Positions 13,633-64,000 of a stretch of DNA of 64,000 nucleotides are shown piece after piece. Within the stretch, counting starts at the first letter, position 1. The number at the start of each line of letters is the position of its first letter. This DNA is from Candidatus Zambryskibacteria bacterium RIFCSPLOWO2_02_FULL_51_21. Lineage in GTDB: Bacteria > Patescibacteriota > Minisyncoccia > Phycocordibacterales > Zambryskibacteraceae. Below the pieces are notes generated by a model, which made no database searches, was not told the DNA's origin, and saw only the letters and a list, made by a program, of their open reading frames with translations. Location of the stretch: NCBI GenBank assembly GCA_001824255.1, contig MHWQ01000002.1, positions 205,446-269,445 of the forward strand, read 5' to 3'. A program made the translations under genes and the position numbers.

Positions 13633-13633
13633 T

Positions 13634-14614
13634 TTAATAAAGCTTAAGGCCGACTAATTTTCTCACCTCTTCCATCTTCTTCTCAGCCCGCTCGCGCGCC
13701 GTCTTGCCGCCGGATTTCAGAACTTCGAGTACCGCTTGCTTGTCTTCCTCCAGGGCCTGCCTTCTCTCGCGCATGGGAGTGATAACTTTCTTGATGTTTT
13801 TTATGAGGATTTCCTTCGACTCCTTGTAGCCGATTTTGCCCGCTTCGTAGCGGTCGCGAAGCTCGGCAAATTCCGGCCCTTCGGTGAAGAGTTTGTGCAG
13901 AGCGAAGACATTGTCTTTCTCCGGGTCCTTGGGCTCATCCGGCAACTTGGAATCCGTGACAATGCTCATGACCGCCTTCTCAATCTCTTCGTCTGTGGCG
14001 AAAAGCGGAATGGTGTTGCCGTAGCTCTTGCTCATCTTCCGGCCGTCGGTGCCGGGAACTGTCGCTACCTGGTCGAGTATGAGAACATCCGGCAGTTTGA
14101 ATGTCTCGCCGAAAGCGTTGTTGAACTTCTGCGCCGTGTCGCGGGCAATTTCGACATGTTGTTTCTGGTCCTGGCCCACGGGCACCACATCCGTATCTTG
14201 AATTAAAATATCCGCCGCCATGAGTATCGGGTAGTCGAAGAGGCCGACGTTCGGCTCTTTCTTATTGGCGATGGCGTCTTTGTAAGCATGCGCTCTTTCG
14301 AGATACGGCACCGTCGTGAGACAGTTGAAAATCCATGCCAGCTCGGCCACTTGCGGCACGTCGGATTGTTTGTAAATGGTGACATTCTTCGGGTCGAGAC
14401 CTATGGCCATATAGTCGAGAAGCACTCCGGCCGTATTCTCCTCAAGCTCCTCCTTGTTCTGCACGGTCGTCAGGGCATGGAGGTCGGCGATGAAGATGTA
14501 GCTCTCGAACTCATTCTGAAGCTCCACGAACTGCTTCATGGCGCCGAAATAGTTGCCGACATGCGGCCTCCCCGTCGGCTTCACCCCTGAAAGCAGTATC
14601 TTTTTAGATGCCAT
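13634..14614 (-). CDS. trpS: Tryptophan--tRNA ligase
   Basis: Class I HIGH-like (TGRPHVGN) and KMSKS motifs, about 326 aa. Confidence 0.9.
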   Translation of the reverse strand: MASKKILLSGVKPTGRPHVGNYFGAMKQFVELQNEFESYIFIADLHALTTVQNKEELEENTAGVLLDYMAIGLDPKNVTIYKQSDVPQVAELAWIFNCLTTVPYLERAHAYKDAIANKKEPNVGLFDYPILMAADILIQDTDVVPVGQDQKQHVEIARDTAQKFNNAFGETFKLPDVLILDQVATVPGTDGRKMSKSYGNTIPLFATDEEIEKAVMSIVTDSKLPDEPKDPEKDNVFALHKLFTEGPEFAELRDRYEAGKIGYKESKEILIKNIKKVITPMRERRQALEEDKQAVLEVLKSGGKTARERAEKKMEEVRKLVGLKLY

Positions 14615-14639
14615 ATGAAGCTATAATACCAGAGAAAAT

Positions 14640-20886: not shown

Positions 20887-21230
20887 ACGAATTCGATTAC
20901 GGCCATCTGGGCGCCATCCGACTTCCTTCTCACCATCTTGGTGATGCGAAGGTATCCGCCGGAGCGGCTCTTGTAGGTTTGTGAGATGTCGGCTGCGATT
21001 TTCTTCGCGGCCTGCACTCCGACTCGGGAAGTGAGCAGCCTCTTGGAAGCGGGAGTTTCTTTCTTGCCGAGCGTGACGAGCTTCTCCATGAAGGGGCGAA
21101 GTTCCTTGGCCTTGGCCTCGGTCGTCTTGATCTTCCCCTTGAGCGCAAGCGAATGCGCGAGAGATTTCATCAGAGCCCTTCTCTGGTTTGTCTTCCGGCC
21201 GAATTTTCTGTGGGCTCTGTGGAATGCCAT
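20883..21230 (-). CDS. rplQ: 50S ribosomal protein L17
   Basis: N-terminal HRKFGRKTNQRRAL motif typical of L17. Confidence 0.9.
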   Translation of the reverse strand: MAFHRAHRKFGRKTNQRRALMKSLAHSLALKGKIKTTEAKAKELRPFMEKLVTLGKKETPASKRLLTSRVGVQAAKKIAADISQTYKSRSGGYLRITKMVRRKSDGAQMAVIEFV

Positions 21231-21231
21231 G

Positions 21232-22194
21232 TTATTTCAAAGTAATGCCGTATTCACCGAGCGCTTTCCTGATTTCCTGGATGCCCTTGGCGCCAAGACC
21301 CTCTATCTCGAGAAGGTCTTTCTCCTTCTTCCTGGCAAGACCCCCGACGGTCCTGATGTTCGCGTCCGCGAGAGCATGCTGGGCTCTGGAGCTGATGTCG
21401 AGAGACTCGACTCTGGTCTTAAGCACTTCTGGGTCAACTTCCGAACGGGCCGCCACGGGCGCGCTGATTGTCGCCTTCGGTTCCTCTTCCGAAGGCAGCT
21501 CTTCCTTGAAGCCGACAACCGCCTTGAGCTGGTTAATCATAACCTCGATAGCATAGGTAAGAGCCTCGGTCGGAGTGATGGTGCCGTCCGTCTCGATCGA
21601 GATGCGGAGTTTGTTGAAGTCGGTCCTGTCGCCGACGCGCATGTTCTCGACTTCGTAGCTCGCGCGGCGGATGGGAGTGAAGATGCCGTCAAGCGCTATA
21701 GTGCCGATATCGACGCGGGACTTGTCGATCATTTCCTTCGGCATGAAGCCGAGGCCCTTCTCGGCCCTAATCTCCATATCAATCGAAGCCGATTTGGAAG
21801 TGAGAGTGGCCAAGCTCACATTCGGAGTGAGAATCTCCACCTGTCCGGGCACCTCGAGGTCCTTGGCGGTGAGCGCCTTCTCACCCTTGGCCTTGAGATA
21901 AAGCGTCTGCGGTTCGTCAGTGGTGAAGCGCATGCGAACCTTTTTAAGATTAAGGAGGATGGTTACCACATCCTCCTTGACTCCGTCGAGCGTCGAGAAT
22001 TCGTGAGAAACGCCGGCAATCTTGACCGAGGTAATGGCCACTCCGGGAAGCGAGGAGAGAATGATGCGCCTCAGACTGTTGCCGAGCGTGTGGCCGTAGC
22101 CCGGGTAAAGGCCCTCAATTTCGAAGATTCCACTTTCTCCCTCTTCTGAAACCACTCGGGGCTTCGAGGGCAGATGTATTGTGTAGTCGGCCAT
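21232..22194 (-). CDS. rpoA: DNA-directed RNA polymerase subunit alpha
   Basis: NTD dimerisation motifs and CTD helix-hairpin-helix; position between rpsD and rplQ. Confidence 0.9.
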   Translation of the reverse strand: MADYTIHLPSKPRVVSEEGESGIFEIEGLYPGYGHTLGNSLRRIILSSLPGVAITSVKIAGVSHEFSTLDGVKEDVVTILLNLKKVRMRFTTDEPQTLYLKAKGEKALTAKDLEVPGQVEILTPNVSLATLTSKSASIDMEIRAEKGLGFMPKEMIDKSRVDIGTIALDGIFTPIRRASYEVENMRVGDRTDFNKLRISIETDGTITPTEALTYAIEVMINQLKAVVGFKEELPSEEEPKATISAPVAARSEVDPEVLKTRVESLDISSRAQHALADANIRTVGGLARKKEKDLLEIEGLGAKGIQEIRKALGEYGITLK

Positions 22195-30944: not shown

Positions 30945-32204
30945 CTAGACTGGAAGATTGGCCGGCGCTTCGGCCTTCTTGCTCGGTGCCCTCACAAGCG
31001 AAGGCGTGGTGGCGACTGAGCCGGGCAAATGGAAGAGGCTGGCCACTTCTTCGACGGTGAGTATGTAGGGTTCGGAAAAGAGATGGTAATGGAGCGGCCC
31101 GTGGTAGGCCCGGCGCTTGTAGGAGTCGATGAAACTTGTCAGCCGTTCGTTCTTCCTGATATCGTTCCAATCCTGCCATGAGTGCGTCAGGGCGAAGAAA
31201 ATTGGTTTGATGCCGTTTAGCATCGTGGCCGAACCGAACTGACGCATGGAACCGATGATGCCCATGCCGCGAGTCTTGTCGAACTCATCCTTGGGAGCGA
31301 TGTACATAAGGCGAATCATGGTGTCAAAGGCGAGCTTGCCGGCATTTCTCTGGATGGACGCGACAGTATCGGTCTGCGCCTTGGTCAAGTTAAGGAAACG
31401 GAAGGTCTGGGCTTCGCCTTCTTTCGGCTTGAGCAGAGATTCTTCCTCAACCATCTTTTCTATCTCCTTCTTGATACCGGCGCGCCAGTCCGGCTTGGCG
31501 ATGAGGCGGCCATAGAGATAACTCTCTTTGGCATGGGCGCGGATGAGAATCTGTATGCCGGCCACTTCGCCGGGCTTCAGCGTGCCCAGATATTCTATGA
31601 CCGGTGTTATGGGGTCGACAATCTTCGCTTGTTCTTCCTGGTCGCCGGCTTTTTTATCAAGTTCGAATTCAATGTAGGTCTTGATGGGATACGCGTCGGG
31701 TTTGACGAGACCGGTGTTGACGCCGAAGACTTTCACCTTCTCCGGGTCGTAACGCAGGTCTAGCGCGTAGTCCCTGACCTCGAAGACTTCCGCCTCCGGG
31801 TATTGGGCGTAAATTCTTGACTCGATGATTTTCTTCCACCTCGGGAAGGCCCAGATGAAGAATCTCACCTGCCCGCCGATGGAAACGATTTCGAGCGAGA
31901 ACCATTCGCGCATTTTGCCCTCCCAAAAAGCGTCGGCCGGAGTGGAAATGTTGGCGTTCTCCCAGATGCCCTGGAGCACGAGCTCCATGGCCGCCGGGGA
32001 CTTCGTCACCTCCTTCGGCAGTCTTATCTCGAGTAGAATCGAGCCCTGCTGGCTGACCCAGAGCCGGCGGATGTACCTGAGCCAGGTGGTCCAGGCGAGA
32101 CTTATGAGAATCAGCGGCACCCAGACCGGCCAAGCGGAGAAAAAGAAACCAATAGCCCGCGAGAGCACCTCCTGATTGAAAGGGTTGGCTAAGTCTTCGA
32201 ACAT
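30945..32204 (-). CDS. Conserved hypothetical membrane-associated protein (419 aa)
   Basis: ORF track; N-terminal TM pair then large soluble domain; tightly packed with mltG. Confidence 0.6.
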   Translation of the reverse strand: MFEDLANPFNQEVLSRAIGFFFSAWPVWVPLILISLAWTTWLRYIRRLWVSQQGSILLEIRLPKEVTKSPAAMELVLQGIWENANISTPADAFWEGKMREWFSLEIVSIGGQVRFFIWAFPRWKKIIESRIYAQYPEAEVFEVRDYALDLRYDPEKVKVFGVNTGLVKPDAYPIKTYIEFELDKKAGDQEEQAKIVDPITPVIEYLGTLKPGEVAGIQILIRAHAKESYLYGRLIAKPDWRAGIKKEIEKMVEEESLLKPKEGEAQTFRFLNLTKAQTDTVASIQRNAGKLAFDTMIRLMYIAPKDEFDKTRGMGIIGSMRQFGSATMLNGIKPIFFALTHSWQDWNDIRKNERLTSFIDSYKRRAYHGPLHYHLFSEPYILTVEEVASLFHLPGSVATTPSLVRAPSKKAEAPANLPV

Positions 32205-33307: not shown

Positions 33308-36067
33308 TCAAGAAGTCACGATATTTACCAGTTTTCTAGGGACATAAATCCTATTCTTGACTGCCTTATCCCCAACCCACTTTTGCGTTTCGGGGAGATT
33401 CTCTGCAAGCTCGAAAGCTTCCGCCTCATCGAGCGCTCTCAGCGCTTCGAATTTGCCGCGCACGCGGCCGTTGACCTGAACCACAATTGTAACAACTTCG
33501 CTCACAAGCTTCGTTTCATCGTACCCGGGCCAGCTCTGTGAATGAATTGAATCGCTGTGTCCGAGCGAGTGCCACAACTCTTCCGCCATATGCGGCGCGA
33601 ATGGTGCTAAGAGCTTTAGTAATGTTTCGTATTCTTCTTTGGAGATTTTCTCTTTCTTCTCCAAATCATTTACAAAAATCATCAGGGTTGAAATCGCAGT
33701 ATTGAAACGCATGTGCTCGATATCGCCGGTCACCTTTTTTATCGTTTGATGAGCGGAAGATGAAACTTCATCGAGCGAAGTCTGGCCATGCTTGCCGGAG
33801 GCAACATCCGAAGACTTTGTGAGAGGAAGTTTCGTCTGAAGTCTCCATATTTTCTCCAAAAATCTCCGCGGCCCGACCAGAGAACTCTCACTCCAGGCAA
33901 TTGCCTGTTCGAAGGGGCCCATGAACATCTCGTAGAGGCGCAGAGTGTCGGCGCCGAAACGTTCAACGATAGAATCGGGATTTATGACATTGCCTTTCGA
34001 CTTACTCATCTTCTCTCCCCCTTCGGCCAAGATAAGCCCGTGAGAAGTGCGCTTCTTGTAGGGTTCACTTACGGGCACAAGGCCTATGTCATATAGAAAC
34101 TTATTCCAGAAACGGGAATAGAGAAGATGAAGAACTGTGTGCTCCATACCGCCGTTGTACCAGTCCACGGGCATGAAATATTTGAAATTTTCAATTTGCA
34201 ATTTCCAATTTTCAGTAGAAACCGGATTCTCAAATCCTTTCTTATCGAATAGGTAGGCGAGAAAATACCAGGAGGAGCCGGCCCAATTGGGCATAGTATC
34301 TGTCTCGCGCTTGGCAGGACCGTCGCATTTCGGGCAAGTTATATTGACCCACTCATCTATCGCCGCGAGCGGCGACTCGCCGGTGTCGGTGGGCATATAA
34401 TTCTTTACCTCTGGGAGAAGGACCGGCAAATCTTTCTCCGGCACGGGCACTATGCCGCATTTATCGCAGTGCACAACCGGAATCGGTTCACCCCAGTATC
34501 TCTGCCTCGAGAAAACCCAATCACGAAGTTTGTATTTGACGACCTTCTTGCCGAATTTCTCCGTAATTTTCTCTCTGGCTTCTCCCGATTCAAGACCATC
34601 GAATTCATTGGAATTCGCAATGATTCCTTCTCCTGTATAGAAATCTTTGCCAGTCTCAATACGCTGTCTGATAATTTCTATTTCCGAGTGATTTATACGA
34701 ATAGTTTTGAATTCCTCTTTGGATATCCATTCGACTTCATGCTTTTCAAGCTCTTCTTCTGTTACGGTTTGACGGGCATTACTCTTTAATTCAAAAAACA
34801 GCAAGACATCATGAGCGATGCGATTAACTCCTTTATGAGCTGCATAAAATTCCGCTTGAGTATCCCCGCCAAGCCTTCTAATTAATTCGATATCTGTGTA
34901 TCCGGTTTCTTCCGTTATTTCTCTCTTGGCCGATTCTACGGCATTCTCTCCTTCTTCTATGCCTCCTGTTACAAAAGTTCTCCATGGAACTTTTTTCCAT
35001 TTCAGAGTGAGATACTTCTCCGTTTTTGGATCATAAACAATGCTTAAGGTGACTTTTCGCGCCACAATATCTTTGCCGTTTTGATGCGGATTGGTGGAAT
35101 CCGGCAGGCGCGGCGTTATCACGTGCTTAATCGGCAAATCGTGCTTCTTGGCGAACTCATAGTCGCGCTCGTCGTGCGCGGGCACCCCCATAATGGCTCC
35201 GGTGCCGTAGTCGAAGTAAACATATTCCGCTTCCCAGACGGGAATTTTTTCCCTGGTCGCGGGATTAATTGCGTAATCTCCAGTAAATTTGTCTTCTTTA
35301 CCCGCCTTGACCAAGAAAGTAGCACCGAAGATTGTGTCCGGCCGAGTCGTGAATACTTCTATATCATCAAATTTGATAAGCGCGCCTTCCGACTTCCCTA
35401 TCCAGTTCTTCTGCTGAACTTTGACCCGCTCCGGATAATCCACGGTGTCGAGGTCAGCCAGAAGTTTGTCGGCATACTTAGTGATGGCGAGCATCCATTG
35501 CTCTTTTTCCCGCTGTTCCACCGGCGTGCCACAGCGCTCGCACTTGCCGTCCACCACTTCTTCGTTGGCGAGGCCAATCTTATCCTTCGGACACCAGTTG
35601 ATGGGAATCTTCGCCTTGTACGCGAGTCCATGCTCAAGAAACTTCAAGAAGAGCCATTGAGTCCATTTGTAATACTTGGGGTCAGTCGTGTTAATCTCGC
35701 GCGACCAGTCGAAGGAGATGCCGAGCGACTGAATCTGCCTGCGAAAAGTGTCTGTGTTTTCCTTCGTAATTTCTGCGGGCGGACGGCCTGTTTTGATAGC
35801 GTAATTCTCCGTCGGCAAACCGAAAGCGTCCCAGCCGATGGGATAGAGTACATTCTTGCCTTCCATCCTTTTCTTCCTCGCAATGATATCCATGCCGATG
35901 TACGGGCGAGGATGTCCCACATGAAGACCGTCTCCGGATGGATACGGAAATTCTATAAGCGCGTAATATTTTTGCTTAGAAGAATTATCTTCTGCATTGT
36001 ATAGGCCATCTTTCTCCCATTCCTTCTGCCACTTAGACTCTATCTGTTTCGGGTCGTATTCTGTCAT
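33308..36067 (-). CDS. leuS: Leucine--tRNA ligase with reduced CP1/editing region and an inserted Nudix hydrolase domain
   Basis: HVGH and KMSKS motifs; TTRPDT...GTGA spacing only about 45 aa; canonical Nudix box GGIEEGENAVESAKREITEETGY at aa 368-390. Confidence 0.85.
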   Translation of the reverse strand: MTEYDPKQIESKWQKEWEKDGLYNAEDNSSKQKYYALIEFPYPSGDGLHVGHPRPYIGMDIIARKKRMEGKNVLYPIGWDAFGLPTENYAIKTGRPPAEITKENTDTFRRQIQSLGISFDWSREINTTDPKYYKWTQWLFLKFLEHGLAYKAKIPINWCPKDKIGLANEEVVDGKCERCGTPVEQREKEQWMLAITKYADKLLADLDTVDYPERVKVQQKNWIGKSEGALIKFDDIEVFTTRPDTIFGATFLVKAGKEDKFTGDYAINPATREKIPVWEAEYVYFDYGTGAIMGVPAHDERDYEFAKKHDLPIKHVITPRLPDSTNPHQNGKDIVARKVTLSIVYDPKTEKYLTLKWKKVPWRTFVTGGIEEGENAVESAKREITEETGYTDIELIRRLGGDTQAEFYAAHKGVNRIAHDVLLFFELKSNARQTVTEEELEKHEVEWISKEEFKTIRINHSEIEIIRQRIETGKDFYTGEGIIANSNEFDGLESGEAREKITEKFGKKVVKYKLRDWVFSRQRYWGEPIPVVHCDKCGIVPVPEKDLPVLLPEVKNYMPTDTGESPLAAIDEWVNITCPKCDGPAKRETDTMPNWAGSSWYFLAYLFDKKGFENPVSTENWKLQIENFKYFMPVDWYNGGMEHTVLHLLYSRFWNKFLYDIGLVPVSEPYKKRTSHGLILAEGGEKMSKSKGNVINPDSIVERFGADTLRLYEMFMGPFEQAIAWSESSLVGPRRFLEKIWRLQTKLPLTKSSDVASGKHGQTSLDEVSSSAHQTIKKVTGDIEHMRFNTAISTLMIFVNDLEKKEKISKEEYETLLKLLAPFAPHMAEELWHSLGHSDSIHSQSWPGYDETKLVSEVVTIVVQVNGRVRGKFEALRALDEAEAFELAENLPETQKWVGDKAVKNRIYVPRKLVNIVTS

Positions 36068-40075: not shown

Positions 40076-40120
40076 GAGCCCGCGAAGAGCCTGCGCTCTT
40101 CGCGGGCTCTTCTATTTTTG
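40076..40120 (+). terminator. Rho-independent terminator
   Basis: 15 bp stem GAGCCCGCGAAGAGC-CUGC-GCUCUUCGCGGGCUC then UUCUAUUUUUG. Confidence 0.75.
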
Positions 40121-40933
40121 GTTACACAAAGTTTCGAGCGCTTGGAGGTCGGCAGGGGTGGCGCGGAGGAAGTCGGCGTTGTTTATTTTATACATGATGG
40201 CCAAGGGGTCCGAGACGTGTTCGAGGCCGAGCGCGTGACCGAACTCGTGCGCGAGGAGCCGCACCAGCTTCGTCCGGCTGTCGAATTCGTAAATATTTAT
40301 CCCCTCCCCTTCCGGCCCGTTGTAATAAATGCCGCCCTCGAAAGTCTCGCCGCGCGCGGCGCCGACGGCGTTGTATTGGCTGACGTTCAGATTGAGACTC
40401 TTCGCCAGCTTATTCAATCTATCGGCAAGAGCGTTGAGTTCGGTCGCCTTGCCGTTGAGTTCATCTTCCAGAGACCTCAGAGCTTCAATTTCGGCATTGG
40501 TTACTCTCCTTTTGGATTGGAATTCCGCTACTTGCCTGTCATAAGCGCTTTTAAGCGAATTGTATTCGCTCTCAAGTCTTTTGTAAGAAGCCTCGAGCGA
40601 GTCGTAGCTTGTCTCGTTCGTCTTGAGATTGCTTTCTATAGACCCCAGCTCCTCCGTCGTCTCTTGGCGGTAGTCGTAAACCAGGTTTACCGGCAAGGCA
40701 CCACCCTCCGTCTTGTAAACAAAAAGGTCTCGGCCAGAAGGTCTCTCCCAAATCGCTTCGGCTTCGCTCAAAGCGGAGAGGAAATCTGTCCGGCTTACGT
40801 CAAAGCGCTGGTCGAAAGCGCCTATTTCATACGCAATAGGCCTAGTACAGGGAGGAACCGCGCCGCCGGGACCAACGGTGAACCACCAGGCTGCGGCGAC
40901 GAGAACCAGAAGGAAGCTTAGGGCCTTGAGCAT
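40112..40933 (-). CDS. Secreted zinc metalloprotease (zincin HExxHxxGxxH, matrixin/M10-like) with coiled-coil region
   Basis: Signal peptide, HEFGHALGLEH motif. Confidence 0.75.
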   Translation of the reverse strand: MLKALSFLLVLVAAAWWFTVGPGGAVPPCTRPIAYEIGAFDQRFDVSRTDFLSALSEAEAIWERPSGRDLFVYKTEGGALPVNLVYDYRQETTEELGSIESNLKTNETSYDSLEASYKRLESEYNSLKSAYDRQVAEFQSKRRVTNAEIEALRSLEDELNGKATELNALADRLNKLAKSLNLNVSQYNAVGAARGETFEGGIYYNGPEGEGINIYEFDSRTKLVRLLAHEFGHALGLEHVSDPLAIMYKINNADFLRATPADLQALETLCNQK

Positions 40934-41025
40934 TTACTTAATTATCTATGGTATAATCCCCTTGTCCAGCCGGAGAGACTTCTTAGGCCGGTATTAGGGA
41001 CTTAATTACCAATTACATTTAAATT

Positions 41026-41283
41026 ATGGCAAGAACTGCGAATCCGGCACTCCTTAGGCCCATGACCCTGTCTTCGGAACTCGAGGCAGTAGTGGGCAAA
41101 GGACCGATGCCCAGGGGCCAAGTGGTGAAGAAGATGTGGGAGTACATCAAGAAGAACGACCTCCAGAATCCTTCCAACAAGAGGAACATCTTCTCTGATG
41201 AGAAGCTTAAGCCCATCTTCGGCGGCAAGAGCGAAGTGACGATGTTTGAGATGACCAAGCTTGCTTCCGGACACATGAAGTAA
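41026..41283 (+). CDS. SWIB/MDM2 domain protein (85 aa)
   Basis: SWIB-like conserved pattern (..VVKKMWEYIKKNDLQNP..KR.I..DEKLK.IFG...V.MFEM.KL...H); extended -10 TGGTATAAT at 40949-40957. Confidence 0.6.
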   Translation: MARTANPALLRPMTLSSELEAVVGKGPMPRGQVVKKMWEYIKKNDLQNPSNKRNIFSDEKLKPIFGGKSEVTMFEMTKLASGHMK

Positions 41284-41310
41284 TTCGGGCTTGGGTCTGA
41301 GAGGAGAAAA

Positions 41311-41346
41311 CCAGCCCCGCCGCTCTGCGGCGGGGCTGGTTTTGAT
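41311..41346 (+). terminator. Rho-independent terminator after SWIB gene
   Basis: 13 bp GC-rich stem CCAGCCCCGCCGC...GCGGCGGGGCUGG followed by UUUUGAU. Confidence 0.75.
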
Positions 41347-41381
41347 AAAGAACGGCATCAGGTAGATTCTTTTTATCACAC

Positions 41382-41411
41382 TTGACATAGTGTCCTTTTT
41401 TGTATTAAGAT
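41382..41411 (+). promoter_or_regulatory. Promoter TTGACA-N18-TAAGAT upstream of sulfatase-like gene
   Basis: TTGACA 41382-41387; TAAGAT 41406-41411; partial inverted repeat GACA-TAG-TGTC overlaps the -35. Confidence 0.45.
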
Positions 41412-41491
41412 AATGAATAGAAGTTCGTTGGAATTCAGCACGCCAAGCCCAAACTTGGCCCACACAACCCCACACAGGAAGAAGGTAGACA

Positions 41492-43186
41492 ATGCGGAAA
41501 AGACTTGGATTCGCCGTGCTGGTCGCTATTCTCACGGGGGCCATCCTAACCCCCGCTCAGACGAAATCGAATGTCGTCGTCATCATGGCGGACGACATTC
41601 CCATGAGCGACATCACCACCATGGTGGCTCAAAGCCAGCTCCCCAACATCAAGGGGCTACTGGACACCGGAATCGAGTTCACCCAAGCCATTTCTAGCGG
41701 CTCGGTCGGCTCGACGGCGCGCATCTCTGTCCTCACAGGACAATACGCGCAGAACCACAAGGAGTTTGGAGCGGACCTCTTCTACGGAGGCCCGGTCCGA
41801 CACAACGAGGCGACCCTCTTGCCAAACTGGCTGCGGCCCGCCGGCTATATTACCGCGAAGGTCGGACGCACCATCCCAGGCTACGGCGCTGGTGATCTCA
41901 CCACTGAAGAGCTCCAGGGAATCGCCGCAATGCATCCGACCGTGACAGCTGAGCAGCTTCGTCTGTTCTACTCCACTTTCCCGAAGTGTTCGTACATGCC
42001 GCCGGGTTGGTCCATTTGGTTCGTTTTTTGCGAGCCGTGGACCTGGAGCGTCCACAAGTACAAGGCCTCTATCAGCGGGACCAAGATGGACTTCAGTTCA
42101 TACAACACCCCGGTGGAAAGGTGGCACCAGACCGACTTCGTAGCTGATGTCGGAGACTGGTTCATCAGGACAGCCGCAACTTTGGGAGCACCATGGTTTC
42201 TGGAGCTCGCTCCAGTCGCCTACAACCGCGAGTTATGGCCCGGGCCGGACGTTTACAACGTCTGTCCGGACCCCACGCAGCCACAAGCATGGTGGTACGG
42301 TGGACGATACTCGGGCGTCTCAGAAAGGCCGCCACTGCGCCACATAAACACCATCTGGAACGCGAATGACCCGAACGGCGTGGCACTAGCGTCGCTCGAC
42401 TTCTCGTTCCCCACGCCACCCTCATTCGACGAAGAGGATGTTTCAGACAAACCCACGTGGGTTCAGAACCTCCCGAGAATCTCTGCAGAGGACTTCGATT
42501 GCCTCCAGAAACGTTACTGGCGCCGGCTCGAGACGGTCAAGTCCATCGACGACCTGGTGGGCAAGGTGATGAAGGCGCTCGCGGAGACGGGCCAGCTCGA
42601 CAACACTTACGTGGTGTTCATGGCCGACAACGGAAACAACGACGGCCATCACCGCTACAACGAGAAGCTGTCGGCGTATGAGAATTCCCTACGGATCCCC
42701 CTCATCATCCGGCGGCCAGGCACGACTACTCCGGTCAAAGTGGACAAGCTGGTGCTGGGCGTCGATATCGCCCCGACCATCGCGGCCATCGCTGGAGCTA
42801 CGCCGAATATCGTGGTGGATGGCAGGTCTCTCCTGCCACTCATGGACAACCCCAGTTTGCCTTGGCGCAAGATGGGGCTCATCCAGCACACGCTCGGTGT
42901 CTGGGACGCAGGGGAAGCCACTACTGCTCCCCGTGAGTACTACGGGCTCCGGATCGGCAACGGTAACCCGCGCTTGTTCCTGAACTACCCCAAGGTGCAA
43001 ACCGGCGTCCGAGGGGAGTACTACAAGATGGCGACGGACCCGTATCAGCTCAATAACCTGTACGGGATGGCGACCACGGAGATAACCAACATCTCCCCAT
43101 GGCTCAACGCCATGAAGGTGTGTAGGGGCAACAACCCCACCACCGTGGGAAGCTGTGCGTGGTTGGAGAACAACTTCAACCGCTGA
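41492..43186 (+). CDS. Secreted sulfatase-fold hydrolase (alkaline phosphatase superfamily); canonical C/S-x-P-x-R formylglycine motif not evident
   Basis: Signal peptide, VVVIMADD metal-binding start, ...GSTARISVLTGQY where sulfatases have CxPxR...LTGRY; GC about 58-60%, GC3-rich. Confidence 0.65.
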   Translation: MRKRLGFAVLVAILTGAILTPAQTKSNVVVIMADDIPMSDITTMVAQSQLPNIKGLLDTGIEFTQAISSGSVGSTARISVLTGQYAQNHKEFGADLFYGGPVRHNEATLLPNWLRPAGYITAKVGRTIPGYGAGDLTTEELQGIAAMHPTVTAEQLRLFYSTFPKCSYMPPGWSIWFVFCEPWTWSVHKYKASISGTKMDFSSYNTPVERWHQTDFVADVGDWFIRTAATLGAPWFLELAPVAYNRELWPGPDVYNVCPDPTQPQAWWYGGRYSGVSERPPLRHINTIWNANDPNGVALASLDFSFPTPPSFDEEDVSDKPTWVQNLPRISAEDFDCLQKRYWRRLETVKSIDDLVGKVMKALAETGQLDNTYVVFMADNGNNDGHHRYNEKLSAYENSLRIPLIIRRPGTTTPVKVDKLVLGVDIAPTIAAIAGATPNIVVDGRSLLPLMDNPSLPWRKMGLIQHTLGVWDAGEATTAPREYYGLRIGNGNPRLFLNYPKVQTGVRGEYYKMATDPYQLNNLYGMATTEITNISPWLNAMKVCRGNNPTTVGSCAWLENNFNR

Positions 43187-43195
43187 AGACCATTC

Positions 43196-43252
43196 GCAAG
43201 GCGTGTCATGACTCTGCTTTCGCAGAAGCATGACACGCCTTGATTTATTTTG
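43196..43252 (+). terminator. Rho-independent terminator after sulfatase-like gene
   Basis: AAGGCGUGUCAUG...CAUGACACGCCUU stem with structured loop, then AUUUAUUUUGG. Confidence 0.7.
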
Positions 43253-43324
43253 GTGGACCTAGGCGGAATCGGACCGCCGTTTCGGCAATGCGAATGCCGT
43301 GTTCTGCCACTAAACTATAGGCCC
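43251..43324 (-). tRNA. tRNA-Ala (anticodon CGC), CCA encoded
   Basis: Manual cloverleaf: acceptor GGGCCUA/UAGGUCC with G3:U70, D-loop AGUGGCA, anticodon loop UUCGCAU, T-stem GGCGG/CCGCC; T-loop UCCGAUU has C at position 55; 5' end overlaps DedA stop codon. Confidence 0.6.
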
Positions 43325-43905
43325 TTTTTCCCCTTAAAATATTGGATAACCGGCGGAATCAAGGATACCACAACGATAAGCCCCACGATAGGCAAAACAT
43401 AGCGGTCCGCATCGGGAATCGACTGGCCGAAGAAATATCCCGCCGAGGTAAGGCCGACCGCCCAGATAAGAGCCCCGAAGAAGTTATAGAAAGTAAAAAT
43501 TTTGTACTTCATCTCCCCCACTCCGGCCATTACGGGGATAAAAGTGCGCACTATTGGAACGAAGCGTGCGAGCACTATCGCTTTCTTGCCATGCTGGTCG
43601 AAAAAGCTCCTGGTCTTCTCGATATTTTCCGGGCTGAACCAGAATGATTTGGGCCGAGAGAAAATTCTTGGGCCGATTTTCCTTCCAATCCAGTAACCGG
43701 TCGCGTCTCCGGCAAAAGCCGCGAGGAAAAACATGGGCAAGAGAAACTCTATGCGCAAGTACCCCTGCGACGCGAGAAATCCGGCGGTGAAAAGAAGCGA
43801 ATCCCCCGGCAGGAAAAAACCGACGAATATGCCCGATTCGGCATAAATGATGCCGAAAAGGCCGAGATATCCGGCTGTTTGAATCAAAGAGACGAGGTCG
43901 AACAT
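43315..43905 (-). CDS. DedA/SNARE-associated (TVP38/TMEM64) family membrane protein
   Basis: DedA signature region (GIFVGFFLPGDSLLFTAG...), multiple TM. Confidence 0.75.
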   Translation of the reverse strand: MFDLVSLIQTAGYLGLFGIIYAESGIFVGFFLPGDSLLFTAGFLASQGYLRIEFLLPMFFLAAFAGDATGYWIGRKIGPRIFSRPKSFWFSPENIEKTRSFFDQHGKKAIVLARFVPIVRTFIPVMAGVGEMKYKIFTFYNFFGALIWAVGLTSAGYFFGQSIPDADRYVLPIVGLIVVVSLIPPVIQYFKGKKGL

Positions 43906-44807: not shown

Positions 44808-45794
44808 TTGTATATGAAAAATATAATACTCATAGGATTTATTATTTTAACTCTCGGACTGTCTAGTATTGGCCACGCGGCTACCACTCCTACCTTATCG
44901 GACAGTTCGACGTATGCGATTCTTTCCAGTACCTATACCGATACGTCTGGCGCAACGACAATCAATGGAGACGTCGGCTTCACCACTCCCCCGGCAACCC
45001 CGCCACTTGGCACACAAACGAATTATGGAAGTGGAGCGCCATACTCTGTGGCTGGTACTGACCAAGCGGCCGTATTAGCTCTCTTGAATGCCCAGCCGTG
45101 CGATTTTACCTTCGGGGCTGCCACTGATTTGAGCCTGGAGACCCAGCCTCTCCAGCCGGGTGTTTATTGCATTACGGGAGCGCAATCTGTTGGGACAGCA
45201 GGGATCACATTGCTTTCTGGAACGTATATATTTAGATCAACGGGTGCTCTCAATACAGTGGCGAACTCCGTGGTTTCTGGTGGTAATGCCTGCGATGTTT
45301 TCTGGACACCAACGGCTACCACATTGGGAGCCAACTCTACTTTTTTCGGAACAGTGATTGATGACGCTGGAATCACAGTCGGAGCCGTAACTACATGGCT
45401 TGGCCGGGCGCTTGCTTTTGGGGGCACGGTTACGACAGACACTAATACCATCACAGTGCCTAATTGTGCTCCTGTGGTCCCCACACCACCCTCGCCTCCA
45501 GTCCCAACCCCTTCTTCTGGCTCATCGCATTCTGGAGGAACGAAGAGATGTGATACTTCTACCACACTTAGTTGCGAAGAATATTTCAGAAGCCCGGCAG
45601 TTAGCCCAGCAGTAAGTACGGTAGTTGCGGTACCTGAAGTGCTTGGAGTTTCAGTGTCTCCATATTCATATCCGACTCCATCGATGCCTAGTACAGGAGG
45701 GAGTCGTGATTACATGATCCATCTACTTCAACTTGCGAGCATTCTAATTGTTTCTGGAGGACTATCAATGTTCGTAGCAAGAAAAAGTAGATAA
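44808..45794 (+). CDS. Secreted DUF3494 (ice-binding-like beta-helix) family protein with C-terminal sortase-type sorting signal (MPSTGG-TM-RKSR)
   Basis: Signal peptide; N-terminal ...YAILSSTYTDTSGATTINGDVGFTTP... and C-terminal ...GRALAFGGTVTTDTNTITVP resemble DUF3494; Pro/Ser-rich stalk; lower GC about 45%. Confidence 0.5.
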   Translation: MYMKNIILIGFIILTLGLSSIGHAATTPTLSDSSTYAILSSTYTDTSGATTINGDVGFTTPPATPPLGTQTNYGSGAPYSVAGTDQAAVLALLNAQPCDFTFGAATDLSLETQPLQPGVYCITGAQSVGTAGITLLSGTYIFRSTGALNTVANSVVSGGNACDVFWTPTATTLGANSTFFGTVIDDAGITVGAVTTWLGRALAFGGTVTTDTNTITVPNCAPVVPTPPSPPVPTPSSGSSHSGGTKRCDTSTTLSCEEYFRSPAVSPAVSTVVAVPEVLGVSVSPYSYPTPSMPSTGGSRDYMIHLLQLASILIVSGGLSMFVARKSR

Positions 45795-56768: not shown

Positions 56769-58622
56769 ATGAGTGACGGAAAGCAGGCTGGCGCGTATCT
56801 GGTGGAAGCAATTCCCCTGGCTAAATCCGCCTCAAGAAATCTTTCTTATTTCTCCTCTGTCCGTTTGGTACCCGGAACTTTGGTGCGAGCGCCTCTGCGA
56901 AAAGGATTTATCCTCGCCGTAGCGACAAGCTGCCGGAGCGCCGCGGCTGCCAAGACCGCAATACGCCGAGCCGAATTCCCTCTTCGGAAAATCGCGAGAA
57001 AAGACATTTACGAAGCCGGCTTCGCGCCGGAGTTTCTCTCTGCAGTGGAAAAAGCTTCACTCTACTACGCCTGCAGCGCCGGAGCGCTCCTCTTCTCCCT
57101 CCTGCCCAAAATACTTCTTGAGAATCCTGAGAAATTCTTCCCGCCGCCGCAGAAAAGAAGCCGCGCCGCCGGTCCCAAGGAAGTACTACTTCTCCAGATG
57201 GAGGACGAGGAGCGCTTCGGACAATACCGCGCGCAGGTGCGCCAGTGCTTCGCCAGAGGAAAGTCGGCCATGTTCGTATCGCCGACGCACGTTGATGCGG
57301 TGAAAGCCGCGACGCGGCTTTCACAAGGCATAGGGCCATACGTCTTCGTCTTTACCCTCAAGGCGAAGGCCGCTGAAGCGAGGAGAATCTGGCAGGCGGC
57401 GCTTGGCGAAGAACATCCCATACTCTTCATCACAACCGCGGCCGGAGCGGCCTTCGACCGCCCTGACATCGACACTATTATCATCGAGAGAGAGAACTCC
57501 CGCGCTTACTGCTCTCTATCGAGGCCATACCTACACCTCAAGGTTTTTCTCGAATATCTGGCCAGAGATACTTCGCGCCAGCTCATACTCGGAGACTCAG
57601 TCCTCTCGCTTGAATCATTGAGGAAAGAGAAGCAGGGCGAGTGCGCCGAGCTATCGCTTGTGAGGTGGCGACTGCCAGCAGCACTCTCCCGCCTGGTTGA
57701 CGCCAGAGAAAAACCCGATGGCAAAGGGAAATTCGAAATCTTCTCACCCGAACTTAAAACACTTATCTCCAAAGCCCTTGAGGAAAAGGAAAAAATATTT
57801 CTCTTCGGCGCCAGGAAGGGTCTTGCTCCCACTACCGTTTGTGGCGACTGCGGTTATATCCTCCCCTGTCTCAACTGCGGCGCGCCTGTCGTGCTTCACC
57901 GGCAGAAAGCGGGCGGAAATGTCTATGTCTGCCACGCCTGCGGCGAGAAGCGAGATTCGAAAACAGTCTGCGGATATTGCGGCAGCTGGAAACTCGTGCC
58001 TCTCGGCATAGGTATTGAGAGGATAGTGGCGGAGGCGAGAGACCTTTTCCCTTCCGCTACAGTCGAAATACTCGACAAGGACCACGCGCCGACGGACGCG
58101 AAAGCGCGAATCATCGTGAAGAAATTCGAGGAGACCGGCGGTATCCTCGTCGGCACGGAGTTCGCCTTCTTCCACCTTGAGAAGGTCCCGTATGCCGCTC
58201 TCGTCTCGGCGGACTCGCTCTTCTCCATCCCCGACTTCGGGATAAACGAGCGCATCTTCTACCTGGTCTCCCGCCTGCGCGAGATGACGCAGAAAGAATC
58301 TCTCATCCAGACCAGGAACATCGGCAAACAGGTCCTCGCTTGGGCGGCGCAAGGCAATATCATCGACTTCTATCTGAGTGAAATCGCGGAGAGAAAAAGT
58401 CTTTCTTATCCGCCGTTTGCAATTTTTATCAAAATTGAAGACGCAAGAAACAAGATGCAAGAGACAAAAGATAAATTATTGAAATGGCATCCAGAGAGTT
58501 ATAAGAATTCGCTCATTATAAGAATACCTAAGGAGAAGTGGCCAGACGAAGAACTCTCGCGCGAACTCTCATGGCTTTCACCGCAATTTTCCATTAAAGT
58601 AGACCCTGAGAGTATCATATGA
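56769..58622 (+). CDS. priA: Primosomal protein N' (PriA)-like with degenerate helicase ATPase motifs
   Basis: N-terminal 3'-DNA-binding domain, PriA Cys4/Cys4 zinc module (CGDCGY...CLNCG...CHACG...CGYCG) and helicase C region; Walker A reduced to ARGKS, DExH replaced by EREN. Confidence 0.6.
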   Translation: MSDGKQAGAYLVEAIPLAKSASRNLSYFSSVRLVPGTLVRAPLRKGFILAVATSCRSAAAAKTAIRRAEFPLRKIARKDIYEAGFAPEFLSAVEKASLYYACSAGALLFSLLPKILLENPEKFFPPPQKRSRAAGPKEVLLLQMEDEERFGQYRAQVRQCFARGKSAMFVSPTHVDAVKAATRLSQGIGPYVFVFTLKAKAAEARRIWQAALGEEHPILFITTAAGAAFDRPDIDTIIIERENSRAYCSLSRPYLHLKVFLEYLARDTSRQLILGDSVLSLESLRKEKQGECAELSLVRWRLPAALSRLVDAREKPDGKGKFEIFSPELKTLISKALEEKEKIFLFGARKGLAPTTVCGDCGYILPCLNCGAPVVLHRQKAGGNVYVCHACGEKRDSKTVCGYCGSWKLVPLGIGIERIVAEARDLFPSATVEILDKDHAPTDAKARIIVKKFEETGGILVGTEFAFFHLEKVPYAALVSADSLFSIPDFGINERIFYLVSRLREMTQKESLIQTRNIGKQVLAWAAQGNIIDFYLSEIAERKSLSYPPFAIFIKIEDARNKMQETKDKLLKWHPESYKNSLIIRIPKEKWPDEELSRELSWLSPQFSIKVDPESII

Positions 58623-60467: not shown

Positions 60468-60947
60468 TTAACGAATGGCCGCCAGCCGAACCTTCTCGCC
60501 GGCGATCTCCGCATCGAACTCGCTTGACTCCATCATCATCTTGACGGCGGAGCTGTAGTACTTGCCCGCCTGCGCGAGCGCGAGGACCCGGTCGAGGCGC
60601 TTGTTGACGTCCTCCATCGACGCGCCAGCTCTTCGAGCATCCTCGAGCATCGGCAGAAAACTGTCGGAGTACGAGCCGATGAACCGCACTTCCCGCCCGG
60701 CCTCCACGAGATCGAGGTTGTTGTCGATAAGGGTGAAGGCCATCTGCGGATTCTTCTCGACCACCGCCGCAAATCGGTTTTCGTTCTCGTACACCCGGCT
60801 CGCGAGGTCATGATGGCGATCCTCGAGACCGCTGATTATCTCGCCCGCCTCTTGTGCCCGCTTCTCAAGCTGATGCACCCGATAGAGAAGCGTGACGTTC
60901 GACACGATGAGTCCTAGGATAACGATGCCGAGCAACACTTTCTTCAT
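60468..60947 (-). CDS. Hypothetical membrane-anchored protein
   Basis: ORF track; N-terminal TM then helical domain. Confidence 0.55.
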   Translation of the reverse strand: MKKVLLGIVILGLIVSNVTLLYRVHQLEKRAQEAGEIISGLEDRHHDLASRVYENENRFAAVVEKNPQMAFTLIDNNLDLVEAGREVRFIGSYSDSFLPMLEDARRAGASMEDVNKRLDRVLALAQAGKYYSSAVKMMMESSEFDAEIAGEKVRLAAIR

Positions 60948-62112: not shown

Positions 62113-64000
62113 TTACTTATTCAATTCACTCCTAGTGAGCGGACCAACTGAACCAACTGGCTCTAGACCCCGGGCACTCTGGAAGGCAGTCACAGCGGCT
62201 TTGGTCAGTTCACCGAAGTAGCCGGTAATTGGCCCCAAGTAATAGCCTAAGCTCTTCAGTGTTTCTTGAAGTAGAGTCACCTCTGGGTCTCTTACTCCCA
62301 CATAAAGAGTTTCGGTAAACTTGTCGGAAGAGAAAGTTTGGTTACCAGTATTAGCCACCACCTGGAGCTGGTTAAGCTCATCGGCGATGGCCTGCAATTC
62401 CACTATGTAAGAGGTTAGGTTTACCAACCCAGGATCAGCGGCAATTCTCTGAGAGAGTAAGGCAAGTTTGTTTTGGACAGGCACAAGACGAGAGGGGTCA
62501 ATTGGCTTTAGCGCTTGATTATTGATAACGCCACCGGTACCCCCTCTATTGTTTGGGCTCGGAGAATCCCCAGGAGTCGTAGGAGGGTTAGTCGGTGGTG
62601 GCGAAGGCGGTGGAGGTGAGACACTGTATACAGATAAGAAGTCTTCTGCGGAATAACCATCAGCTCCAGTGTCATAGTTAATCTGCCACCAGTTGAATGA
62701 GTCTGCGGTCACTGGTCCGGATGTGACGGTGCCTAGACTACCGAGTGTTTGAGTACCGAGGAGTGTGCCTGTGGTATCTGCTGTGGCTCTGACGTTTATA
62801 TTAGTTGTTGCTTGGACTCTTTGACCTATGGTGAATTTGGCTGATGGGGTTGGAGGAGGGGGGGGTGGAGGTACTGGTGGAGGAGTAGTTTGGGTACCGC
62901 TAAATTCATAAGCTCCGATGTCCCAGGCGGGGCCTTGGGGGCGGGAGACGTTCCCAATGTCATACCGTATGCTTTGTCCCGGATACCTTGTTTCAAAAGC
63001 CGCCATAGCCGCAGATAATCCGCCCGTATCTATAGCGGGAGAACCAGCCTGAAGTTTAAAATCACCGCCCGCTGGATTAACAAGGAGTGGGTTAACATTC
63101 CTTGTGTTTATTGACTGAGCAGGAAATGCAGAATTAAACCCGGCAACATCGTATATTGAAGTCGTGCCCCACTGAATTCTTGCCGGAGAATTGAATATTA
63201 TATTGTTCTTCATGCTTCCCCCTGCAGAAATACTTGTATCAAAAAGCCAGATATCTCTTCCCTGAGAGTCATTTCTGTTGCCCAAAATATTATTTTCAAT
63301 AATTATTGACCCTGGAGCAGGAGTTTGTATTCCTGCCGAATAATTCCAAAAAGTATTATTCAGAATATACTTGGTGCCGGAATGCCGTAAACTCATAGCC
63401 GCATCAAGATGCGGATTATCCATTGAGCTTCCGTCACTATTGGTAACGTTCATAATGACATTGCCGATGAAAAATCCGTTAGGAACATTGGCGCTTCCGG
63501 TGCCTATCCCCACTTCACAATCAAGCATGTAATTGCCTATAAACCATATATAATCCGGATAATCACCTTGCATACCCATACAAGCACCCCCCGATGAGTT
63601 GCTGGGCCTAAAGCTTTGCAGTAAGTTCTGAGAAAATATCACATCAGTTGCGTCTTTCGTCCATAGACCAGTCTGCTTGTTGTTATGTGAATAGTTGCGT
63701 CCAATATATATTTTGTAAGGCCTGGCCCCGACGGCAGATGGTGAGTTCCCCACCTGCACTCCATCACCGCTGCAACGCGCCAGCTCGTTATCAAGCACCC
63801 AAACATTATTAGCCGCGCCCTCCATTTTTATGCAATGGATATCCTGATCATAAGTAGCATAAATATCACCCGCATCATGAATATAATTTTTATAAATTAC
63901 TATATACGCGGAGCTCCCAAACCCGATACCTCCTGAAGTTAAACTTCCGACGAGCTCATTATTACGGATTGATATGGCATAATTTGCCCCGATCTCAATT
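62113..64000 (-). CDS. Large secreted right-handed beta-helix (pectate-lyase-fold) protein with poly-Pro linkers, SH3-like domain and C-terminal peptidoglycan-binding (PG_binding_1) domain; N-terminus beyond window
   Basis: PbH1-like repeats (NNIIFNS..., GNVIMNV...), PPPVPPPPPPP and PPPPSPPPTNPP linkers, C-terminal LQETLKSLGYYLGPITGYFGELTKAAVTAFQ; reading frame open from 63825 to 64000. Confidence 0.7.
   Translation of the reverse strand, partial: IEIGANYAISIRNNELVGSLTSGGIGFGSSAYIVIYKNYIHDAGDIYATYDQDIHCIKMEGAANNVWVLDNELARCSGDGVQVGNSPSAVGARPYKIYIGRNYSHNNKQTGLWTKDATDVIFSQNLLQSFRPSNSSGGACMGMQGDYPDYIWFIGNYMLDCEVGIGTGSANVPNGFFIGNVIMNVTNSDGSSMDNPHLDAAMSLRHSGTKYILNNTFWNYSAGIQTPAPGSIIIENNILGNRNDSQGRDIWLFDTSISAGGSMKNNIIFNSPARIQWGTTSIYDVAGFNSAFPAQSINTRNVNPLLVNPAGGDFKLQAGSPAIDTGGLSAAMAAFETRYPGQSIRYDIGNVSRPQGPAWDIGAYEFSGTQTTPPPVPPPPPPPTPSAKFTIGQRVQATTNINVRATADTTGTLLGTQTLGSLGTVTSGPVTADSFNWWQINYDTGADGYSAEDFLSVYSVSPPPPSPPPTNPPTTPGDSPSPNNRGGTGGVINNQALKPIDPSRLVPVQNKLALLSQRIAADPGLVNLTSYIVELQAIADELNQLQVVANTGNQTFSSDKFTETLYVGVRDPEVTLLQETLKSLGYYLGPITGYFGELTKAAVTAFQSARGLEPVGSVGPLTRSELNK

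Follow-up and report, generated by a model that had tools for sequence, protein, structure and literature searches.

The mechanism of the S1 sulfatases relies on a formylglycine gem-diol nucleophile, a Ca2+ ion, an invariant S site and a Lys/His acid, and reviews present the S site as invariant and formylglycine as obligatory in this family (PMC10154612; bioRxiv 10.1101/2021.07.23.453482). The set of Ca2+ ligands has been described (three Asp and one Asn or Gln; bioRxiv 10.1101/2021.07.23.453482), and the sulfatase pattern [CS]-[STACGMV]-[PA] shows that a small residue, Ser included, is normal at position +1 (PMC5066984). In SulfAtlas, S1 membership is defined by the Cys/Ser signature. The described structures closest to the protein analysed here are the N-acetylglucosamine-6-sulfatase-like BT3177 (PDB 7p24) and BT4656 (5g2v), both of SulfAtlas subfamily S1_11. 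The protein is encoded by an open reading frame (ORF, Table 1) in a stretch of 64,000 nucleotides, hereafter the window, from Candidatus Zambryskibacteria bacterium RIFCSPLOWO2_02_FULL_51_21 (contig MHWQ01000002.1). It has the S1 fold and belongs to a clade of homologs that lack the Cys precursor of formylglycine. The canonical S1 mechanism is impossible here, because the nucleophile position is occupied by Gly and the His of the S site is replaced by Asn. Our preferred reading, still tentative (probability about 0.45), is that of an exported pseudo-sulfatase whose pocket holds an anionic ligand, probably one with a sulfate ester group, but leaves it uncleaved.

The 564-residue product is identical to the database entries OHA92140.1 and OHB11213.1, each a 'hypothetical protein' of Candidatus Zambryskibacteria (Parcubacteria, candidate phyla radiation or CPR). 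Gene calls on 20 contigs of independent ENA, JGI and NCBI samples give the same protein, letter for letter, which excludes a sequencing error or a private mutation. It matches the Pfam profile PF00884 (Sulfatase) with 109 bits against a cut-off of 25 (E-value 3.6e-31) and the sulfatase C-terminal family SGSH_C with 47.9 bits (2.1e-12), and its AlphaFold2 model is confident (pLDDT 94.4, pTM 0.93). A PF00884 match above the gathering score, the SGSH_C domain and this model together place it in the S1 fold. The top 50 Foldseek matches in the PDB are all S1 sulfatases or phosphonate monoester hydrolases. The leading structures in both HMMER and Foldseek searches are 7p24 and 5g2v, which have the same two-domain alkaline-phosphatase-like fold (Foldseek E-values 4e-27 and 7e-27, probability 1.00). 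The Pfam matches to Phosphodiest (PF01663) and DUF229 are short and weak, that to PF01663 being limited to residues 345-387 (26.7 bits, 5e-6). None of the NCBIfam equivalogs comes near its cut-off, the highest score being that of arylsulfatase PRK13759 (106 bits against 481).

The N-terminus carries a predicted signal peptide, with a basic n-region, a hydrophobic h-region and a c-region of small residues; it is the sole hydrophobic segment of the protein and would be cleaved after residue 22. An equivalent N-terminus is present in all 30 aligned members of the clade, and residues 2-16 form a low-pLDDT helix in the AlphaFold2 model. Near the other end, C544 and C555 probably form a disulfide, which fits export. 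All members of the clade exhibit these signs of export, namely signal peptides and conserved Cys pairs. The first-pass annotation, made from the letters alone, had taken the product for a secreted protein of sulfatase fold, and the PF00884 match, the model, the Foldseek list and the N-terminus all bear this out.

The same annotation had aligned a VVVIMADD block and an LTGQY segment (residues 28-35 and 81-85) with type I sulfatases and had read G-S-T-A-R at the place of the C/S-x-P-x-R motif. Both assignments are confirmed. The register was checked in three ways: with HMMER against sulfatases of the PDB, with a MAFFT alignment including 120 database homologs, 86 of them canonical Cys-type, and with a search of the PDB using a profile of 86 family members. 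HMMER places 'svGstaR' of the query on 'slSgpsR' of 7p24 and 'alSgpsR' of 5g2v. Over a longer segment, s-v-G-s-t-a-R-isvlTGqy lies above s-l-S-g-p-s-R-acmiTGkh, in which the Ser is the formylglycine position. In the MAFFT alignment V-G-S-T-A-R stands opposite L-C-C-P-S-R of the 86 canonical homologs. Helix 73-82 of the model begins at residue 73, where S1 sulfatases carry formylglycine, and the register is therefore not mis-set. Of the catalytic signature [CS]-x-[PA]-x-R the Arg alone remains. The formylglycine precursor and the Pro are replaced by Gly73 and Thr75, so that the earlier statements that both are missing and that the protein is not a true formylglycine sulfatase hold.

Other parts of the active site are also remodelled. 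The second sulfatase signature, G-Y-x-[ST]-x(3)-G-K-...-[HLGN], is broken in the query, which reads G118-Y-I-T-A-K-V-G125-R126-T-I-P129; Arg at this Lys position was recorded in just 61 of 4058 sulfatases (PMC5066984). The PDB profile search aligns the canonical 'aph' with the PH/iH of 5g2v, 7p24 and 9s03, and N245 thus takes the place of the S-site His, whereas the second S-site Lys, K392, is kept. By its residues the Ca2+ site is complete in the query (D34, D35, D379 and N380). D34 is invariant, D35 is found in 32 of 34 clade members and in 84 of 86 canonical homologs, and the residues that hold the metal or the anion (D34, D35, R77, D379, H387, R388 and K392) are kept across the clade. New residues accompany these changes. 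D384 is specific to the clade, and the canonical Glu386 has given way to His in the query and to Gln in most of the clade. The helix headed by C337 has gained the clade-specific basic residues K340, R341 and R344. A loop inserted directly after N245 carries C258, present in 34 of 34 members, and a C258-C337 disulfide would probably staple this loop.

Compared with 7p24 and 5g2v, the query shares the PF00884 and SGSH_C domains, the Asp/Asp/Asp/Asn ligands, R77, K392, LTGQY and the DNG...H-R...K...YE blocks. However identity to these structures is only 18-19%, and the query has Gly for Cys/Ser, Thr for Pro, Arg for Lys and Asn for His, as well as the extra, putatively Cys-stapled loop after N245. 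The substrate recognition triad Asp/Arg/His of S1_11 (D361, R363 and H445 in BT3177), found in 91% of S1_11 sequences (bioRxiv 10.1101/2021.07.23.453482), is not kept. The HMMER alignment to 7p24 (chain numbering +4) gives E391/L393/T477 instead, the third position being approximate as it falls in a stretch of low identity.

At 90% identity, 34 clusters of homologs lack the Cys: that of the query and 33 others (P0002-P0034), with 35-99% identity to the query. Every more distant homolog has it. Position 73 is Gly in 29 clusters, Ala in four and Ser in one, against Cys in 86 of 86 canonical homologs; position 126 is Arg in 33/34 against Lys in 84/86; and position 245 is Asn in 34/34 against His in 85/86. 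At each of three further positions Asn occurs in 84 of the 86 canonical homologs: in the clade, position 129 is Thr or Pro, position 94 is variable and position 380 is distributed between Asn (24), Ala (5), Ser (4) and His (1). The two residues that follow position 73 vary across the clade (S16/A12/G5/V1 at position 74; P19/T12/S3 at position 75). The subclade of the query (query, P0002-P0008) has Ser at position 74 throughout, followed by Thr or Ser. Sixty columns are invariant across the 30 aligned members. Since the substituted residues are kept while pairwise identity within the clade drops to 37%, they are held by selection. The 20 identical contigs, together with syntenic orthologs at 83% and 77% identity, also suggest selection rather than decay. 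In terms of sequence, the clade thus combines the two hallmarks of pseudoenzymes, the loss of essential catalytic residues and the conservation of fold and sequence across species.

The nearest sequences outside the clade are canonical Cys-type proteins from soil and freshwater (P0035-P0120; 28-35% identity, E-values 1e-84 to 1e-48) with the motifs L-C-C-P-S-R, G-K-Y-L-N-G-Y-G and A-P-H. The CCPSR and GKYLN-Y motifs presumably resemble those of animal GNS (SulfAtlas S1_6). In length, signal peptide, C544/C555 pair and most of the ~60 conserved columns these relatives agree with the clade. They keep C73, P75, N94, K126, N129, H245, N380 and E386, all of which are replaced or relaxed in the clade. 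An exhaustive profile search covered 1.84 billion representatives at 50% identity. Among the best 150 matches, which were inspected, 122 are canonical C/K/H and the clade is represented just by P0123, P0003, a fragment (P0009) and P0131; by this count the clade is rare. A profile search of genome contigs with the clade alignment gave, among the matches listed, only canonical relatives with at most 33% identity. A further protein standing among the canonical relatives, P0146 (530 aa, on a 39-kb JGI/Logan contig), has the sequence G-C-P-S-R; its Lys position is occupied by Arg and its His is unchanged. Here the formylglycine motif may have been altered independently or through a shift in register.

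A neighbour-joining tree (BLOSUM62 distances, 491 columns, no bootstrap) groups all proteins without the formylglycine residue into a single clade nested within the canonical Cys-type sulfatases, and the subclade of the query is nested inside the derived part of this clade. Two intermediates, P0028 and L010:8382-9956, have Gly73 and Asn245, yet retain Lys126, a hydrophobic residue at 384 and Glu386. In the core clade Arg126, Asp384 and Gln386 appear together. The clade therefore arose stepwise from canonical Cys-type sulfatases, with C to G and H to N first, followed jointly by K to R, L384 to D and E386 to Q. The co-variation of 126, 384 and 386 suggests that these residues are in contact and that Arg126 is positioned by the new Asp384; Fisher tests on the co-varying positions are descriptive only, the sequences forming a single clade. 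The canonical sequence closest to the clade, L010:11814-13409, shares a polyketide synthase (PKS) locus with two paralogs lacking formylglycine. These tandem genes differ in state: the first (L010:8382-9956) is G/K/N, with 'LGTPSR', GKYLSGYG and AINME; the second (L010:10001-11584, identical with P0021) is G/R/N; the third is fully canonical C/K/H, with 'LCCPSR', GKYLNGYG and APH. Canonical paralog, intermediate and derived form are thus found side by side, which makes the route from an enzyme to a non-canonical protein traceable.

PKS context recurs among the relatives. Outside the CPR, the members of the query's subclade P0005 and P0008 are stand-alone genes with unrelated neighbours, and P0010 also stands alone. 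Of seven other members examined, all from soil and with 39-48% identity to the query, six lie inside modular type I PKS clusters (KS-AT-DH-ER-KR-ACP). These are P0017 (from the Vicinamibacterales metagenome-assembled genome GCA_035699745.1), P0012/P0028, P0019, P0021, P0029 and P0123, and the loci are L005:8406-11581, L007:3180-6419, L008:10001-11575, L010:8382-13409, L093:1269-4563 and the contig of P0029. Each locus contains one or two copies without formylglycine; L010 adds the canonical paralog. Secreted beta-helix/NosD-like proteins of ~520 aa, mutually 44-62% identical, are encoded in four of the loci (L005, L007, L008 and L093), with one or two per locus, and in L008 and L093 they are joined by another secreted protein, of 393-397 aa and without Pfam match. 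Apparently this represents a recurrent, undescribed family of PKS clusters with sulfatase-like genes. The CPR copy itself has neither a PKS nor any other pathway around it in the window. A 570-aa product of the window (62113-63825, minus strand; low GC content at third codon positions, GC3, of 0.43) does match the right-handed beta-helix weakly and ends in a peptidoglycan-binding domain. This protein has no BLASTP match to the beta-helix proteins of the PKS loci, so that there is no evidence of co-transfer.

The composition of the sulfatase-like gene sets it apart within the window. Of 30 window genes it has the highest values both for GC content (0.592) and for GC3 (0.763), the other 29 averaging 0.517 +/- 0.030 and 0.623 +/- 0.078, respectively, which hints at horizontal acquisition by the CPR lineage. 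Soil bacteria are probably the source of the Zambryskibacteria copy. The gene order M10 peptidase, small gene (SWIB or DUF5679), sulfatase-like gene and convergent DedA-VTT gene is found in three related CPR contigs, in the window (40112-43905) and in those of P0002 and P0003 (83% and 77% identity). Since P0002 and P0003 share this M10/sulfatase-like/DedA order, the gene has been retained in the CPR lineage.

If the protein is a ligand-binding pseudo-sulfatase, the Ca2+ with its three Asp ligands, R77, R126 and K392 would still grip an oxyanion in the old S site. Asn245 would offer a hydrogen bond where the His once protonated the leaving group, and the new D384 would position R126. Such a pocket might act like the substrate-trapping mutants of crystallographers, in which Cys is changed to Ala or Ser. 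According to their PDB titles, the mutants 6ptk (C84A, sulfate), 6pt6 (C84S, substrate) and 7pth (C54S, choline) still hold a ligand in the S site; the first two are of PsS1_NC and the third of a choline sulfatase, and like the clade they combine the sulfatase fold with the absence of formylglycine. However these traps were made in the laboratory by single substitutions and have an otherwise intact S site, whereas the clade displays a natural and fixed loss together with four or five further changes of the site and a loop. The CPR copy would be expressed from its own promoter-to-terminator unit and act outside the cell.

Several observations weigh against the pseudo-sulfatase. The strong conservation of the substituted residues would fit a new catalytic site equally well, and a pure scaffold would not need the complete set of Ca2+ ligands found in the query. 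R126, D384, N245 and the inserted loop would line the pocket in this reading, but the loop might occlude it instead. The conservation counts come from one clade and do not represent independent evolutionary events. Moreover, PKS clusters are a context in which tailoring enzymes are usually expected.

These points lead to the alternative that survives best, although we regard it as rather unlikely: an active enzyme without protein nucleophile. A metal-bound water or hydroxide in the formylglycine cavity would hydrolyse a sulfate or phosphate ester in one step, or else a C-O bond would be cleaved by elimination or cyclisation, with sulfate as leaving group and a lipid- or polyketide-like substrate. 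Purifying selection on the remodelled site is strong, and the joint changes at 126, 384 and 386 compensate one another in charge, which resembles re-tuning rather than decay. The retention of the full Ca2+ ligand set by the query, the presence of six of the seven soil members in type I PKS clusters and the canonical Cys-type paralog of L010, which suggests a sulfated metabolite, point in the same direction. On the other hand, catalysis that dispenses with a nucleophilic Ser, Thr or formylglycine is not known from the alkaline-phosphatase superfamily. The change of the general-acid His to Asn and the relaxation of N380 (Ala, Ser or His in ten clade members) weaken catalysis and metal binding, and the CPR copy lacks a PKS or pathway context. 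Nor was a sulfotransferase domain found in L005, where its two PKS megasynthases, a methyltransferase and a condensation-domain protein were scanned. A more specific version seems doubtful: a new kind of nucleophile-free enzyme, with a Ca2+/Arg126/Asn245/Asp384 site acting extracellularly on a sulfated or phosphorylated lipid or polyketide, which would have evolved in acidobacterial PKS clusters and been captured by a CPR episymbiont.

The first-pass annotation had favoured another chemistry, in which a Ser or Thr serves as nucleophile of the alkaline-phosphatase type, as in phosphodiesterases, phosphonate hydrolases or phosphoethanolamine (PEtN) transferases. The candidates would be Ser74 and Thr75. 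Ser74 and Thr/Ser75 are indeed kept in the subclade of the query, and weak matches to PF01663 (26.7 bits), LtaS and YejM exist. NPP/PF01663 proteins, LtaS, PEtN transferases and YejM/PbgA share the core of the superfamily and the D-x-G metal motif with the query, but the matches are short, centred around D379, and the scores for YejM (2e-10, 39 bits against a cut-off of 825) and LtaS (6e-4, 18 bits against 970) are 20- to 50-fold below the NCBIfam cut-offs. Unlike NPP, LtaS and the PEtN transferases, the 564-aa protein has no Ser/Thr at the nucleophile position. It also lacks the N-terminal multi-pass membrane domain of LtaS, EptA and YejM, and its best structural neighbours all belong to the sulfatases or the phosphonate monoester hydrolases. 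The place of the nucleophile at the helix N-terminus is held by Gly73, a position with Gly or Ala in 33 of 34 members, while residues 74 and 75 vary in a clade that shares all other changes of the site. True sulfatases, too, often have Ser at +1 (PMC5066984). The changes of K to R126, H to N245 and N to P129 further indicate that this is not a simple swap of nucleophile. The proposal therefore does not stand up well, and we consider it improbable. Within this superfamily, YejM/PbgA is an earlier example of a periplasmic domain of sulfatase type that serves chiefly in binding or regulation.

The remaining alternative, a mis-registered canonical formylglycine sulfatase, a decaying relic or an assembly artefact, is favoured by the Pfam family match and by the automatic JGI names of relatives ('N-acetylglucosamine-6-sulfatase', 'arylsulfatase A-like enzyme') and by nothing else, and is extremely improbable: the three alignment methods agree, no alternative C/S-x-P/A-x-R motif, which the first-pass annotation had allowed for as a sign of its own misreading, is present anywhere in the ORF (nor is one followed by T-G), and the intact ORF, the 20 identical contigs, the syntenic orthologs at 77-83%, the 60 invariant columns and the confident fold speak against a relic or artefact.

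With the ligand-binding pseudo-sulfatase as preferred reading, the protein is regarded as of S1-sulfatase (N-acetylglucosamine-6-sulfatase-like) descent but is not classed as a formylglycine sulfatase, because the C/S-x-P/A-x-R motif, the G-K signature and the S-site His all fail. The JGI name 'N-acetylglucosamine-6-sulfatase' is likewise unsupported, since the S1_11 sugar-recognition triad fails. Names of this type, including 'arylsulfatase A-like', are wrong for the whole clade and make sulfatases seem more numerous in metagenomes from soil and groundwater than they are. Pseudoenzymes as such are common. What distinguishes the present case is that a whole selected lineage departs, in a coordinated way, from an S site held to be invariant and a formylglycine held to be obligatory. 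In the limited collection of literature searched, no description was found of a natural, conserved S1 lineage without formylglycine, nor of sulfatase-like genes as components of PKS clusters. For natural-product work, the recurrence in PKS clusters with beta-helix proteins provides a marker and a hypothesis, the extracellular handling of a possibly sulfated metabolite. For CPR biology, the gene is an example of a probably horizontally acquired, retained and secreted protein that may mediate interaction with a host or the environment.

Table 1. Features of the sulfatase-like gene and of related loci. Positions refer to the window unless a locus is named.
Feature	Coordinates	Strand	Description
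ORF	41492..43186	+	ATG start, 564 aa; predicted secreted S1-sulfatase-fold protein without formylglycine nucleophile
Sigma-70-like promoter candidate	41382..41411	+	TTGACA-18-TAAGAT, ~80 nt 5' of the start codon
Purine-rich stretch resembling a ribosome-binding site	41476..41485	+	AGGAAGAAGG, 6 nt ahead of the ATG, read from the sequence
Signal peptide (predicted)	41492..41557	+	Residues 1-22 (MRKRLGFAVLVAILTGAILTPA, cleavage before QT); no lipobox Cys
D34-D35	41591..41596	+	First and second Asp of the sulfatase Ca2+ site, both kept
G73-S-T-A-R77	41708..41722	+	Replaces C/S-x-P-x-R; Gly at the formylglycine position, R77 kept
G125-R126-T-I-P129-G-Y-G	41864..41887	+	Counterpart of the second signature G-K-Y-L-N-G-Y-G; Lys to Arg, Asn to Pro
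29-residue insertion, residues 134-162	41891..41977	+	Private to the subclade of the query (query, P0002-P0008, ~560 aa)
N245	42224..42226	+	At the S-site (catalytic-acid) His of the 'A-P-H' motif
Inserted loop R246-P261	42227..42274	+	NRExWPGPxxYNVCPDP, clade-specific, with invariant C258; canonical homologs gapped
C337	42500..42502	+	Clade-invariant; heads the basic helix D-C-LQKRYWRRLE
D379-N380-G-N-N-D384-G-H386-H387-R-Y-N-E-K392	42626..42667	+	Third Asp and Asn metal ligands and S-site Lys392, all retained
C544...C555	43121..43156	+	Cys pair kept in the clade and in canonical relatives
Terminator-like hairpin	43197..43252		Interrupted 19-bp stem and U-rich tract, between the ORF and the convergent DedA/VTT gene
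Beta-helix and 393-397-aa secreted protein genes of PKS loci	L008:11772-13331, 13573-15135, 15221-16402; L007:959-2518; L093:4807-9419; L005:20892-21581		

The sulfatase-like gene looks like an independent monocistronic unit, judging from the signals around it (Table 1). The promoter candidate agrees with the consensus at 10 of 12 positions; one such site is expected here by chance, so that this is weak evidence. The hairpin downstream of the gene has a folding energy of -35.2 kcal/mol (z-score -7.7), and none of 200 shuffled sequences folds as well. It was not picked up by a simple terminator scan, because its stem is interrupted, and it is probably a bidirectional terminator serving both the sulfatase-like and the DedA genes. 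The upstream neighbours encode a matrixin-like M10 peptidase and a SWIB protein, and a convergent DedA/VTT protein lies downstream; these immediate neighbours have no functional tie to sulfate metabolism.

The window has the gene content typical of a small genome (aminoacyl-tRNA synthetases, MurG, FtsW, DnaK/DnaJ, UvrABC, Ddl and MreB). As already noted in the first-pass annotation, a gene for a formylglycine-generating enzyme is missing nearby: neither this enzyme nor a radical-SAM maturase is found among the ~43 proteins of the window, and no ORF with CxxxCxxC is present. The question is moot, since neither maturase acts on Gly. A match to the regular expression 'CxPxR' (57664-58008) belongs to an out-of-frame ORF within the gene 56769-58622, and a 'GFRC' match to UvrB; both are irrelevant.

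Other genes of the window deserve mention. No Pfam family is matched at E <= 1e-4 by the products of 56769-58622 (+), 20986-22149 (+) and 60468-60947 (-), of 617, 387 and 159 aa, respectively. The 419-aa product of 30945-32204 had no match in the Pfam scan, yet it is precomputed as DUF8128. The gene at 44808-45794 (+), close to the sulfatase-like gene, is another compositional outlier, with an unusually low GC3 (0.40). It encodes an ice-binding-like domain (PF11999, 3.5e-17) combined with a signal peptide, a Pro/Ser/Thr-rich stalk and a C-terminal hydrophobic anchor. Finally, the 919-aa leucyl-tRNA-synthetase-like protein encoded at 33308-36067 (-) carries a precomputed NUDIX (PF00293) match between its synthetase segments, an unusual insertion if real.

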